Assembly: GCA_963766715.1 (NCBI GenBank)
Contig: CAVYBH010000001.1
Location: 1 to 64,000, forward strand
Direction of reading: 5' to 3'
Source of the DNA: an uncultured delta proteobacterium
GTDB lineage: Bacteria; Myxococcota; Myxococcia; Myxococcales; Anaeromyxobacteraceae
DNA length: 64,000 nt
Shown here: positions 42,501 through 45,500 of the stretch, one piece after another
Numbering within the stretch: the first letter of the stretch is position 1
Layout of the letters: every line of letters begins with the position of its first letter
Position numbers: made by a program

Positions 42501-45500
42501 TGGCCGCGTTCCTCACCGGGGACGCCGCGCGGCAGGTGTTCGCGCGCCACGGCTACGACCTGCCCGGGAATGGAGTGTCGAGATGAAGCGGGTTCCCGCC
42601 GTGGCCGGGTTGCTGGCTGCTCTCGTGATGGCGCTTCCCGTCCGCGCGTCCACGGATGGCGACCCGGGCGCGACCCCGCACGCCGCCGAGCCTTCCGACC
42701 TGGGCATCCTCGACTTCTTCACGAACGGCTGGAGCCAGGACTGGGTGCACCGGCGCCGCGAGACGCGCGACATGGCGCTCCTCCGGGTCACGACCAACTT
42801 CCTCGAGCGGGAGTTCCGGTTCGACTACGCGTACACGAGCCTCCTCGGCAACGCCCGGTACACCGGGACGGACTTCGCCAGCTCGCTCATGGCCTACGCC
42901 GTGAACCGGCGGCTCATGCTGGAGATCATCGCGAACTACCAGTGGAACGTGCACCCGGGCGCGTCCCCGGTGAACGGCGCCGGCGGGGCGGCCCTCCTGC
43001 GATTCCAGCTCGTCGACACGGCCACGGCCTCCTATTCCACCCAGATCCGGGTGTCGGCGCCCAACCGGGGCATCGGACAGACCCAGACGACGTTCGGCTA
43101 CTACCTGGCCGGCTGGCAGGACGTGCGAGCCTGGATCCCGGCGCTCGGCCGCGTTGGCCTCTACTACTCCTTCGAGTACGACAACCTCCAGGGCCCGGCC
43201 GCCGCGGGCGCGACCAGGAACTCCATCTCCTACGATGTATCGGTCGCCCGGACCTTCACCGACGCCTCCACGCCGGTGGTGGGGGACCTCACCGCCTTCC
43301 TGGAACTCTACGGGACGACCCCTCTCGACGGTGCGAGCTCCGGGAAGACGGTGCTGAGCCTCACGCCGGGGGTCCGCTTCTGGTTCGTCCCGAAGAACTC
43401 GCTCTCCCTCGGCGTGGACCTGCCGGTGAGCCACTCCCCGCCGTATTCCGCTGCCTGGCGCGCGACGTACATCCTGAACTTCTGACGTGGAGCGCGCGAC
43501 GCTGGGCGGCCGGTTCGGGAGCCGATGGCCCGGGTTTCGCATATCTCTCTGCGCTTGGCCCTCCGACCCCACCTCGACGACGTCCGGAGCCGCGCCCGCG
43601 GCGCGTTCCTGGGCCTGGCCCTCGGCGACGCCCTGGGCGCGACCGTCGAGTTCATGCTCCCGGGCGAGATCCGGGCGGTCCACGGGGTCCACCGGGAGCT
43701 CACCGGTGGCGGCTGGCTGAAGCTCCGGCCCGGCTCCGTCACCGACGACACCCAGATGTCCATCTGGATGGGGCGGGCCATCGCCAACGGCGGGGGCTGG
43801 GACGCCCGGCGCGCCGCCGTGCACCTCGCCGCCTGGCTCCGGACCGGACCGGCCGACGTGGGGAACACCGTGCGCCGCGGGCTCCGCCGCTTCGTCGTCG
43901 ACGGAACGCTCGAGGGGGAGCCGAGCCCGGGCGACGCCGGCAACGGCGCGGCCATGCGCGTGCTGCCGGTGGCGCTCGCCACGCTGGCCGATCACCGGGC
44001 CATGTCCCGCACGGCCATCGAGCAGGGGCGCATCACCCACCACCACCCCCTCTCCGACGCCGCCTGCATCCACGTGGGCGAGCTCATCCACATGGCGTGC
44101 CTCGGCCTCGGGATGCCGAGGCTGCGCCGGGCCTCCGACGCCTTCGTGGCCGAGCACCCGGAGTTCGCCTTCTCGCCGTACCCTGGGCTCTCCGGCGGCT
44201 ACGTGGTCGAGACGGTCGCCACCGTCCTCCACTTCCTCCACGCGACGAGCAGCTTCGAGGAGACGCTCGTCGGGATCGTGAACCGAGGCGGCGACGCCGA
44301 CACCACCGGCGCCATCGCCGGCGCGATCGCCGGCGCCTACCACGGCCCGGAGGGGCTCCCCGGACGCTGGCTGAAGCGGCTCGATCCCGAGGTTCGCGAG
44401 GAGGCGGAGTGGCTCGGGGACCAGCTCGTGGCCCTCTCCCCGCTGGGACGGGGCGAGCCTCCCCACCTGACCCCGCGCGCCGGGGCCTAGGCGAGCAGCC
44501 GCTTCACCCGGATCTCGCCGCCGACCACCAGGTACTCGCCCTCTCCCCGGAGGATCAGCGCGGCAGCAGGTGGCCGGCGAAGAAGATCCGCGGCACCGCC
44601 AGCCGGGCCTCCAGGACCGCGTCGCCGAACTCCCAGGCGCGCTCCACGTCGTCGGTGAAGGAGCAGAGGTTGTTCAGCCGCAGCACCCACTCGCGGCGGC
44701 CCAGGGTCTCGACCACCTGGTGGTCCTCCAGCCGGTTCTGGCCGCGCCAGAGCGTGATCCAGCGCGCGCCGGGGAGACGCCGCGCGAGCTCGTACTGCGT
44801 GAAGGTGTAGACGAGGTCGAGCTGGGCGTCGATGGCGCTCGTCCAGGCGTGGCCCCGCGTGCGGTCGGCGACGTAGCGGGCCCAGGCCTCGCCGTCCGCG
44901 CCCGCCATCTGCTCCTGGTGAAAGGTGGGGGCGATGCCCATCCGGCTCTCCACCCAGCCCTTCAGGACCGCCCCCTCCACCGAGCTCGCGTCCACTCCCC
45001 AGCCCCGCAGGAACCGGACGTACCCGTTGCGAAGGCTTCGCCGCGCGCCGGGCGTCTCCTGGGCCTGCCACTGGTGGAGCTGGAAGCGGACGTTCATCCA
45101 GTCGTCGAACTTCCGGCCGCGCTCGTCCGGGTCCTCGGTGCGGTCGAGCACCTCGAACAGGAAGCGGTTCTCCTCCCGCACTCCCTGCAGGACGATGGGG
45201 CGCGGATCCTCGTCGAAATCGCGCGAGGCGATCACCCACGGCGGCAGGTTGCACCGGTTGAAGGAAGTCCGGTTCACGGGCTCCCGGGTGCTCGCCCGGC
45301 GTGCAGGCGCAAGGGCTTCGTTCCCGGGCGGAGTCGCCATCTCCCCGCAACGGCTCGATCGAGGGTCACGTGTCGCGCAGTCTTTGCAAGACCGGTGCTC
45401 CGCGGAACTGGCACCCGAATTGCTCCACCCGATTGCATGGATCCCCGGCGGGCCACCGTCGCCGTCGAGGCGCTCCACGACATCGGCCAGGTCCTCGCGC

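Follow-up and report, generated by a model that had tools for sequence, protein, structure and literature searches.

A divergent COG4313-clade beta-barrel linked to molybdenum genes is a candidate outer-membrane channel for molybdate or tungstate

A gene of 300 codons plus a stop (42583..43485, + strand), found by ORF reading in the window (the whole stretch of 64,000 nucleotides that was analysed), encodes a beta-barrel whose best reading, held with moderate confidence, is an uptake channel for molybdenum or tungsten oxyanions in the outer membrane. The barrel is probably the missing first step of uptake, the passage of molybdate or tungstate across this membrane. The analysis shows the fold of the protein, its remote homology to a known superfamily and a genomic linkage to molybdenum genes together with the specificity of that linkage, and the barrel adjoins genes for molybdenum uptake or molybdenum sensing in many soil and sediment bacteria. 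Many soils and wetlands hold too little molybdenum for unrestricted nitrogen fixation and nitrate use, and the outer-membrane passage of molybdate and tungstate is usually left to unnamed general porins; to our knowledge, the textbook ModABC system names no outer-membrane component. A literature search for the route of molybdate across the outer membrane yielded no paper that describes a dedicated channel, and the porins in PMC545781, as far as the available part of that paper goes, belong to the Fur regulon and not to molybdenum.

The barrel gene and its neighbours in the window

The reading frame stood as a 300-residue gene and is present in one copy in the whole genome. Its start ATG and the TGA stop of modA overlap as ATGA (42583-42586), in agreement with an earlier note on this DNA, which had the barrel gene overlapping the end of modA. 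The sequencing contigs cover the modA-barrel stretch in pieces only, with independent contigs spanning 42432-42806 on the side of the modA-barrel junction and 43411-43615 on the 3' side of the barrel gene. We also confirmed the signal peptide that had been proposed (residues 1-22; 42583..42648, + strand): read by eye from the sequence, the N-terminus looks like a Sec signal, with MKR, a hydrophobic core, the junction VRA/S and no Cys, and AF2 gives a helix at residues 4-16 followed by low pLDDT at residues 19-30. The C-terminus of the protein is ...YILNF.

The upstream modA gene (41746..42586, + strand), identified with Pfam and NCBIfam as coding for a molybdate ABC substrate-binding protein, is indeed cut into two frames, as had been noted, and the break lies near 42194. 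Its halves match positions 1-104 and 105-226 of SBP_bac_11 and positions 1-87 and 101-217 of TIGR01256, and one base is absent at 42194 in one low-depth related contig. This is the sole modA match in the 4.2-Mb assembly, while modBC of the same genome lie on another contig, without modA there. As the sole modA is coupled to the barrel and modBC are elsewhere, the two extracytoplasmic parts are encoded together.

A divergently encoded regulator (40783..41673, - strand) precedes modA. According to Pfam and NCBIfam it combines an excisionase/MerR-type HTH (HTH_17; PF12728, E 7e-13) with a PBP_like oxyanion-binding domain (PF12727, E 3.8e-27), and in NCBIfam it aligns with the PBP part at the C-terminus of the molybdopterin biosynthesis protein PRK14498; the regulator is probably a molybdenum or tungsten sensor. 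It had been described as ModE-like, but does not belong to the ModE family proper. The region between regulator and modA (41674..41745), read from the sequence, is richer in AT than its surroundings and presumably holds promoter and operator. A consensus scan of 41500-44700 returned no promoter or terminator sites, including no sigma-70-like site in 41674..41745 and no terminator-like site between the barrel gene and draG, and an exact inverted-repeat search for a common operator in regulator-barrel intergenic regions (13 and 9 loci) did no better than on shuffled sequences. The draG gene (43525..44490, + strand; TIGR02662, E 6.5e-121) starts 39 bp downstream of the barrel gene on the same strand; the window also holds draT (PF07357) and, farther downstream of the barrel, nifH and nifD.

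Predicted fold, remote kinship and conserved lumen

An AF2 model built on 89 sequences (pLDDT 92.9, pTM 0.84) has twelve transmembrane beta-strands by DSSP between residues 77 and 299 (42811..43479, + strand), confirming the 12-stranded barrel predicted before, and we infer an outer-membrane location. The Foldseek matches reported earlier (FapF, NanC, KdgM, COG4313 and OmpG) were reproduced with the new model, COG4313 being represented by 4rl8. In the VIA-align comparison the best match was FapF, the Pseudomonas amyloid-subunit secretion barrel (PDB 5O65), which also has 12 strands (Z 21.7, rmsd 2.5 A, 222 residues; Foldseek E 8e-7). FapF exports unfolded protein; its likeness to the barrel is one of fold only, with 10% identity in the structural alignment, and the neighbour census found no fap genes among barrel neighbours. 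The second match was 4rl8, the COG4313 / PF13557 channel Pput2725 of Pseudomonas putida F1 (Z 20.9, rmsd 2.8 A, 220 residues), which shares with the barrel both the 12 strands and an N-terminal segment before strand 1.

At the sequence level, no Pfam family was found on the barrel protein at E<=10, NCBIfam gave a chance-level match only, and a profile search with the barrel-family alignment returned no PDB sequence at E<=10. A word-indexed search found 273 relatives, of which the 120 listed are all without a name or a Pfam domain. Among 20 far phmmer matches scanned, however, eight exceeded the cut-off of PF13557 (Phenol_MetA_deg; Pfam gathering cut-off 22 bits), and hhalign matched the core alignment to the far relatives with a probability of 100% (E 1e-39, 252 columns), the latter alignment consisting of 11 rows (seven above the PF13557 cut-off, P0233 just below it and three without a Pfam hit). 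The barrel and the COG4313 relatives have R76, R109/R110 and a PGVR motif in common. Unlike COG4313 members, the barrel and its close kin show no PF13557 hit even at E<=10, and a PF13557 search of the whole window genome found another gene (C8:40328-41071), not the barrel gene. The barrel family is a divergent clade of the COG4313 / PF13557 superfamily, and the earlier description of a protein with no family thus holds for a direct Pfam or NCBIfam name but not for the absence of kin.

Conservation is concentrated in the lumen-facing positions, of which 33 of 74 are at least 95% conserved (11 of 74 for lipid-facing positions), and in the N-terminal segment before strand 1 (residues 39-76; 42697..42810, + strand), delimited by AF2 and conservation. 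This segment is predicted with a pLDDT of 94-98, is without regular secondary structure and has 14 of its 38 positions conserved at 95% or more. It is a presumed lumen plug, a long conserved segment that probably sits in the barrel lumen; model residues 68-300 align with chain residues 2-268 of 4rl8. The stretch ahead of strand 1 blocks the lumen of the solved COG4313 channel, and it counts about 14 residues in Pput2725 versus about 38 in the barrel (available part of PMC4493636).

A lumen that may be occluded by so long a segment would also suit a barrel that is not a channel and acts as an outer-membrane partner in molybdenum handling, for example by docking or anchoring ModA or by sensing, and the ATGA overlap of modA and barrel gene suggests coupled translation. 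The one outer-membrane molybdenum route met in the literature searched offers a precedent, namely secreted ModA meeting the outer-membrane protein IcmP in P. aeruginosa (extract of PMC11734730). We nevertheless consider such a role quite improbable, given that the barrel is not next to modA in most loci, being paired there with regulators or with Mop alone, and that the strong conservation of lumen-facing residues is more in keeping with a pore than with a place on the surface where ModA docks.

The arginines turned out to carry less weight than had been claimed. Of six arginines described as invariant, R79 and R110 are invariant in the 24-sequence core alignment, while R109, R140, R265 and R293 are conserved there at 90% or more. 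In 16 far relatives, eight of them PF13557-positive, R109, R110 and R265 are kept in 11-15, R79 in eight and R140 in seven, so that R293 only is clade-specific. The lumen, assigned by strand alternation and not from the model coordinates, has five conserved basic versus seven conserved acidic residues. Because most of the arginines are found superfamily-wide, shared with relatives that have no molybdenum link, and the lumen is not net basic, the arginines alone are no argument for anion selectivity, and their earlier use as an argument for an anion channel is weak.

Molybdate is bound by catecholate siderophores, and an alternative explanation is that the barrel imports molybdenum or tungsten bound to a small organic molecule, for instance a metallophore of the catecholate type, and not the free oxyanion. 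A lumen that is mixed in charge rather than basic would be in line with this, as would the ties of the superfamily to aromatic or amphipathic substrates (phenol-pathway compounds, sphingosine) in the available part of PMC4493636. However, the neighbour census found neither a metallophore biosynthesis gene nor a TonB-dependent receptor among the conserved neighbours, and the partners ModA and WtpA, by their family names, bind free oxyanions, which makes import of an organic complex distinctly unlikely. Counting against the oxyanion channel itself, the same source, in the part available, has the studied superfamily members thought to carry hydrophobic molecules and Pput2725 as a poor channel for hydrophilic solutes.

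Molybdenum genes around the barrel

The genomic context was analysed in 75 non-redundant loci (from 96, de-duplicated at 95%) of relatives above approximately 41% identity, in a neighbour census that used coverage-filtered clustering, Pfam on representatives and HMMs. Of the 75 loci, 41 carry a molybdenum gene (a mod gene, Mop or a molybdenum regulator) at most 5 kb from the barrel, and a ModE N-domain in L112 and L113 raises the molybdenum-positive loci to 43. Where at least 2.5 kb were available on both sides, 20 of 25 loci were positive, or 21 with L112. The remaining 32 of the 75 loci showed no molybdenum gene and are mostly short-flanked; four of them (L046, L058, L079, L117), however, are free of molybdenum genes despite flanks of 2.5 kb or more on each side. 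The partners are modA, modB or modC, WtpA, Mop, or one of three kinds of molybdenum-sensing regulator. The HTH_17 plus PBP_like type is encoded no farther than 5 kb from the barrel in 24 loci of the 75, and one of two HTH_17-type regulators in 33. Curated models supported these assignments (modA, TIGR01256, 188 bits; modB, TIGR02141, 225 bits; modC, TIGR02142, 290 bits; Mop, TIGR00638; WtpA, E 4e-54; NifB, TIGR01290). Compared to the earlier note, Mop, an HTH-Mop regulator, the ModE N-domain, WtpA, an Oxidored_molyb protein and NifB are additional partners.

Several arrangements have the barrel on the same strand as its partners: barrel-modA-modB-modC in L067, L092 and L106, barrel-WtpA in L108, barrel-Mop-Oxidored_molyb in L026, L027, L029, L030 and L081, nifB-barrel in L098, and modA-barrel, with the ATGA overlap, in the window. 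Overall, the molybdenum context occurs in both halves of the barrel tree and in at least six different arrangements. Molybdenum genes number 4.18 per 10 kb up to a distance of 1.5 kb from the barrel and thin out to 0.09-0.23 per 10 kb at 5-10 kb, and 36 of the 75 barrel loci have a molybdenum gene within 1.5 kb, versus none of 30 control loci of canonical PF13557 members drawn from 101 Myxococcota genomes. The tie to molybdate genes that the earlier note had proposed is thus borne out in 43 of 75 loci, and the molybdenum linkage is strong and specific to the barrel clade.

It could be argued that the function of the barrel is unrelated to molybdenum and that the gene has only been carried along with mod genes in a handful of related lineages, since its kin do not count as independent cases, a few clades hold many of the positive loci, and RND efflux genes recur nearby (AcrB-type in 16 of 75 loci). 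Such hitch-hiking is highly improbable and already disfavoured: the linkage involves the variety of arrangements just described, four kinds of molybdenum-related partner and both halves of the tree, it drops steeply with distance, and it is absent from all 30 control-family loci.

The barrel could be a channel under molybdenum or tungsten control that serves another solute or direction, be it tungstate only, sulfate, vanadate, phosphate or the release of excess molybdenum or tungsten. At one locus it is paired with a WtpA-type tungstate binder, the commonest regulator carries a PBP_like domain whose ligand is unassigned, and a SulP-family permease lies within about 3 kb of the barrel in L058. 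The tungstate-responsive regulator TunR of Desulfovibrio reportedly shares the HTH plus PBP_like architecture; a literature search on TunR and tungstate found no paper. On the other side, the curated models for modA, modB and modC pass their cut-offs in the linked operons, Mop and ModE-domain proteins bind molybdate by family definition, and genes for sulfate or phosphate uptake are not among the recurring neighbours, so that we regard another solute or direction as unlikely.

The nif/dra neighbourhood of the window is a local accident and not a trait of the family. Matches to DraG, DraT, NifH and NifD near the barrel were found in the window only among the 75 loci. Within 401 Myxococcota genomes sampled, the barrel gene occurs in 14 and nifD in 39, and both are present together in four genomes only (the window genome, G000, and G027, G340 and G381); one Myxococcota family (f2) has eight barrel genomes and nifD in none of them. 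We therefore rejected a link between the barrel and nitrogen fixation, with nifD in four of the 14 barrel genomes and draG/draT beside the barrel in the window only. The presence of the barrel in 14 of 401 genomes also means that it is dispensable for molybdate uptake in most relatives.

Proposed function and comparison with known systems

The substrate, the direction of transport and the control by neighbouring regulators are what we infer from these results for the preferred reading, an oxyanion uptake channel. A monomer-sized, 12-stranded barrel of the COG4313 clade would have been recruited to molybdenum and tungsten homeostasis as an outer-membrane diffusion channel. Molybdate, and probably tungstate too, would pass through it from molybdenum-poor surroundings into the periplasm, where ModA or WtpA would bind the anion for import by ModBC. 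Expression of the barrel would be under divergently encoded molybdenum- or tungsten-sensing regulators of the HTH-PBP_like, HTH-Mop or ModE-N type. The mechanism as a whole is proposed by analogy with the phosphate-starvation porin OprP feeding PstS. The barrel's conserved genomic partners in this scheme are the inner-membrane importers ModABC and WtpABC with ModE-type control.

We give a slightly better than even chance to a broader proposal, namely that the barrels are the first dedicated outer-membrane channel family for molybdate and tungstate, a COG4313 clade switched from hydrophobic substrates to a scarce oxyanion and wired to at least three unrelated kinds of molybdenum-sensing regulator, in some lineages fused into barrel-modABC operons. 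If true, it would add an outer-membrane step, and a new component, to the textbook ModABC pathway of molybdenum and tungsten uptake and give a name to several hundred hypothetical proteins in Myxococcota, Acidobacteriota and NC10. It would also mean that the cargo of the COG4313 fold need not be hydrophobic, and would provide a small, tractable barrel for work on oxyanion selectivity. The genomic contexts of the barrel and of COG4313 differ: that of the barrel is molybdate uptake, that of COG4313 aromatic or lipid catabolism, with none of 30 canonical members near molybdenum genes.

The phosphate and pyrophosphate porins OprP and OprO would be functional analogues only, as anion-specific channels co-regulated with high-affinity ABC uptake of a scarce oxyanion. 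They are 16-stranded trimers with an arginine ladder, unlike the barrel with its 12 strands and a lumen that is not net basic, and homology between them was not detected; OprP was absent from the 50 listed fold matches, an absence that by itself excludes nothing. The barrel has no Pfam hit to the KdgM/NanC family of acidic-sugar channels and differs from them in its ordered N-terminal segment, since KdgM and NanC have none in the lumen according to the available part of PMC4493636. They resemble the barrel in being small and 12-stranded, with Z 18.9 for 4pr7 and Z 17.6 for 2wjr.

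Fold and superfamily of the barrel protein

The barrel gene (42583-43485, + strand) has a 300-codon open frame whose ATG overlaps the TGA of modA, the gene before, in an ATGA, and it is single-copy in the genome assembly. Read by eye, its product carries an N-terminal signal of the Sec type (MKR, a hydrophobic stretch, VRA/S) that contains no cysteine and hence no lipobox, and ends in ...YILNF with an aromatic final residue, a typical feature of outer-membrane barrels; the protein is predicted to lie in the outer membrane. The AF2 model (89 sequences; pLDDT 92.9, pTM 0.84) has 12 strands at residues 77-299, ahead of which residues 39-76 form an ordered segment without regular structure. 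We thus confirmed the open frame, signal and 12-strand model described in the earlier note, and its Foldseek list (FapF, NanC, KdgM, COG4313, OmpG) was reproduced. By VIA-align, the top fold match was FapF (Z 21.7, 2.5 A, 222 residues), followed by the COG4313 channel 4rl8 (Z 20.9, 2.8 A, 220 residues) and then by autotransporter barrels and KdgM (Z 18-19). The available sections of a study of COG4313 channels describe 12 strands and a lumen occluded by an N-terminal segment (PMC4493636), the same architecture as in our model, where the segment preceding the strands would likewise occupy the lumen. Conservation is highest at lumen-facing positions and in the N-terminal segment, a pattern consistent with a plug shaped to a specific pore.

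Pfam and NCBIfam give the protein no name, even with thresholds as loose as E 10. A word-indexed search returned 273 relatives; among the 120 listed, none had a Pfam domain, the only names were "hypothetical", and the organisms, where stated, were Myxococcota, Thermoanaerobaculia or NC10 MAGs. The family is small, since an exhaustive phmmer search of 1.84 billion cluster representatives gave only 143 matches at E<=1e-3. The protein is no orphan, because 8 of 20 far matches scanned exceed the gathering cut-off of PF13557 (Phenol_MetA_deg, the COG4313 family), profile-profile alignment of 24 core members with 11 far relatives gave a probability of 100% (E 1e-39, 252 columns), ESM Atlas neighbours include, as a lead only, a "Transporter family protein" cluster with PF13557 in 15% of its members, and the AF2 fold agrees. 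The family therefore remains unnamed, as first described, but it is not without kin and is now assigned to the COG4313/PF13557 superfamily. In one phmmer match of 651 aa (P0132), residues 8-297 form the barrel and the remaining 350 or so have no Pfam match, which may reflect either a gene fusion or an ORF called by read-through in high-GC DNA.

Molybdenum genes beside the barrel and a candidate role

We compared 96 loci (the window, 14 stretches from 13 other gene-bearing Myxococcota genomes, one further genome contig and 80 metagenome contigs), which collapsed to 75 at 95% barrel identity. We clustered the ORFs up to 5 kb away without using any annotation, named cluster representatives by Pfam and NCBIfam, ran cluster-derived HMMs on all ORFs, and scanned loci still negative directly with Pfam. 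Recurring neighbours were an HTH_17-PBP_like regulator, a 135-aa HTH_17-Mop regulator, a 67-aa Mop protein, an Oxidored_molyb protein, and modA, modB and modC, with curated models exceeding their cut-offs; a WtpA-type tungstate binder, ModE N-domain proteins, a MOSC protein and NifB were single-locus neighbours. A mod, Mop or Mo-regulator gene lay within 5 kb in 41 of the 75 loci (43 with two ModE-N loci), either HTH_17-type regulator in 33, ModA, ModB or ModC in 18 and Mop in 12. Most negative loci are uninformative, because only 5/21 were positive where the total flank was below 2 kb, versus 20/25 (21/25 with L112) where each flank reached 2.5 kb or more; four well-flanked loci (L046, L058, L079, L117) had no Mo gene in the direct Pfam scan.

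The link is also specific. Mo genes per 10 kb fell with distance from the barrel from 4.18 (<1.5 kb) to 1.53 (1.5-3 kb), 0.26 (3-5 kb) and 0.09-0.23 (5-10 kb). Canonical PF13557 genes are present in 55 of 101 Myxococcota genomes, including this one (one gene), and none of the 30 best canonical loci had a Mo gene within 1.5 kb, versus 36 of the 75 barrel loci. With these distance and family controls, the molybdenum association proposed earlier became firmer and broader. In a quick maximum-likelihood tree of 73 barrels (two rows below 230 residues excluded), both halves show Mo context, in at least six arrangements, and rows without a Mo gene are mostly short contigs nested among positives. Close-packed, same-strand arrangements comprise modA-barrel (the window), barrel-modA-modB-modC (L067, L092, L106), barrel-WtpA (L108), nifB-barrel (L098) and barrel-67-aa Mop (TOBE)-Oxidored_molyb, about +800 to +2500 from the barrel start (L026, L027, L029, L030, L081). 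DUF3047 closes the last string in four of five loci, and the whole looks like a small Mo-handling operon.

The best-supported reading, which we consider probable, is that the barrel is a Mo/W-regulated outer-membrane diffusion channel: molybdate or tungstate would pass the outer membrane through it to periplasmic ModA or WtpA, under Mo/W-responsive regulation. The data establish the fold, the distant kinship and the specific gene linkage; that the protein sits in the outer membrane, how it is regulated, what it carries and in which direction are inferred from these. The main counter-argument comes from the studied COG4313 members, whose cargo, in the available sections of PMC4493636, is believed to be hydrophobic and which are poor channels for hydrophilic solutes; for this reason we retain a Mo-ligand complex as an alternative, though improbable, cargo. 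For the oxyanion channel, the interpretation of the earlier note is partly supported, with a superfamily home added, a firmer Mo link, and the nif and arginine arguments dropped. Searches of the open-access literature, supplements aside, gave no paper on a dedicated outer-membrane molybdate channel; the only outer-membrane Mo route met there was that of P. aeruginosa, in which secreted ModA works with IcmP (available sections of PMC11734730). We propose a substrate-specific channel of a known kind, the COG4313 fold, with a cargo class new for that fold.

RND efflux operons, assigned to the multidrug type by NCBIfam and made up of an AcrB-type permease, an HlyD-type adaptor and an OEP channel, lie no more than 5 kb from the barrel in 16/75 loci, in varied arrangements and often convergent with it (for example L037:10395-13541, L061:8097-13698, L030:12891-16091). 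A same-genus genome (G251) has a second, fast-evolving barrel copy on C156 (L039; branch length 1.09) with no Mo gene in the 5 kb upstream and MutS2 downstream, which may be a paralogue departed from the Mo context.

The nif neighbourhood and the arginines

The nif neighbourhood did not prove a family trait: draG, draT and nifHD adjoin the barrel in the window alone. A barrel-nif link was rejected, as nifD occurs in 4 of 14 barrel-bearing genomes (of 401) and in none of the eight barrel genomes of one Myxococcota family. On a metagenome contig (L098), nifB (485-2101; TIGR01290, E 3e-174) ends 248 bp upstream of a same-strand barrel (2349-2939), a second, independent nif-side neighbourhood.

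The argument from six arginines is weak, since most are shared with far relatives and conserved lumen-facing residues, by strand alternation, comprise 5 basic versus 7 acidic. Among 16 far relatives (8 PF13557-positive), R76, R109, R110 and R265 are conserved in 11-15, and roughly half keep R79 and R140; R57, R59, R156, R162 and R293 are clade-specific.

Surrounding genes in this genome

Upstream of modA and the barrel lies a divergent regulator (40783-41673, - strand) with HTH_17 (excisionase/MerR-type HTH) and PBP_like domains by Pfam, the latter matched in NCBIfam by the C-terminal portion of a fusion protein of molybdopterin biosynthesis. The sole modA match of the genome (41746-42586, + strand) lies in two frames, its halves covering SBP_bac_11 1-104 and 105-226 and both matching TIGR01256, which bears out the frameshift noted earlier. 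A low-depth contig from a related organism has one base fewer at 42194, precisely at the frame change, so the break is either an error of assembly or a lesion particular to this strain. We favour assembly error because nifD in the window is spread over frames as well. The modA-barrel and barrel-draG junctions are each bridged by independent contigs, although the best sequencing source may be the source sample itself. Downstream, draG (+ strand) follows after a 39-bp gap without a terminator-like site, and beyond it lie draT (opposite strand), nifA, then nifH and nifD.

At 47594-52900, several reading frames are needed for nifH, nifD and the next nif genes: nifD is matched in two stretches (48657-49583, 49562-50011), and its model matches again, more weakly, at 51915-52868. 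Taken with the break in modA and a completeness of 84.6%, this suggests indel errors in the assembly rather than pseudogenes. The assembly totals 4.2 Mb in 18 contigs, and G+C is about 70% around the barrel.

Contig 2 carries modB and modC (ABC_tran and TOBE; L120:8320-10085) straight after a hybrid histidine kinase and with no modA beside them; farther upstream are genes for a family-3 solute-binding protein and a NapC/NirT-type cytochrome. The canonical PF13557 gene of this genome (C8:40328-41071, E 1.8e-22) has no Mo gene within 1.5 kb. From translations only, 39550-40692 of the window appears to encode a single-strand-binding protein (minus strand), a small AbrB/SpoVT-like protein and a PIN-like protein, the last two with stop/start overlap and possibly a VapBC-type pair.
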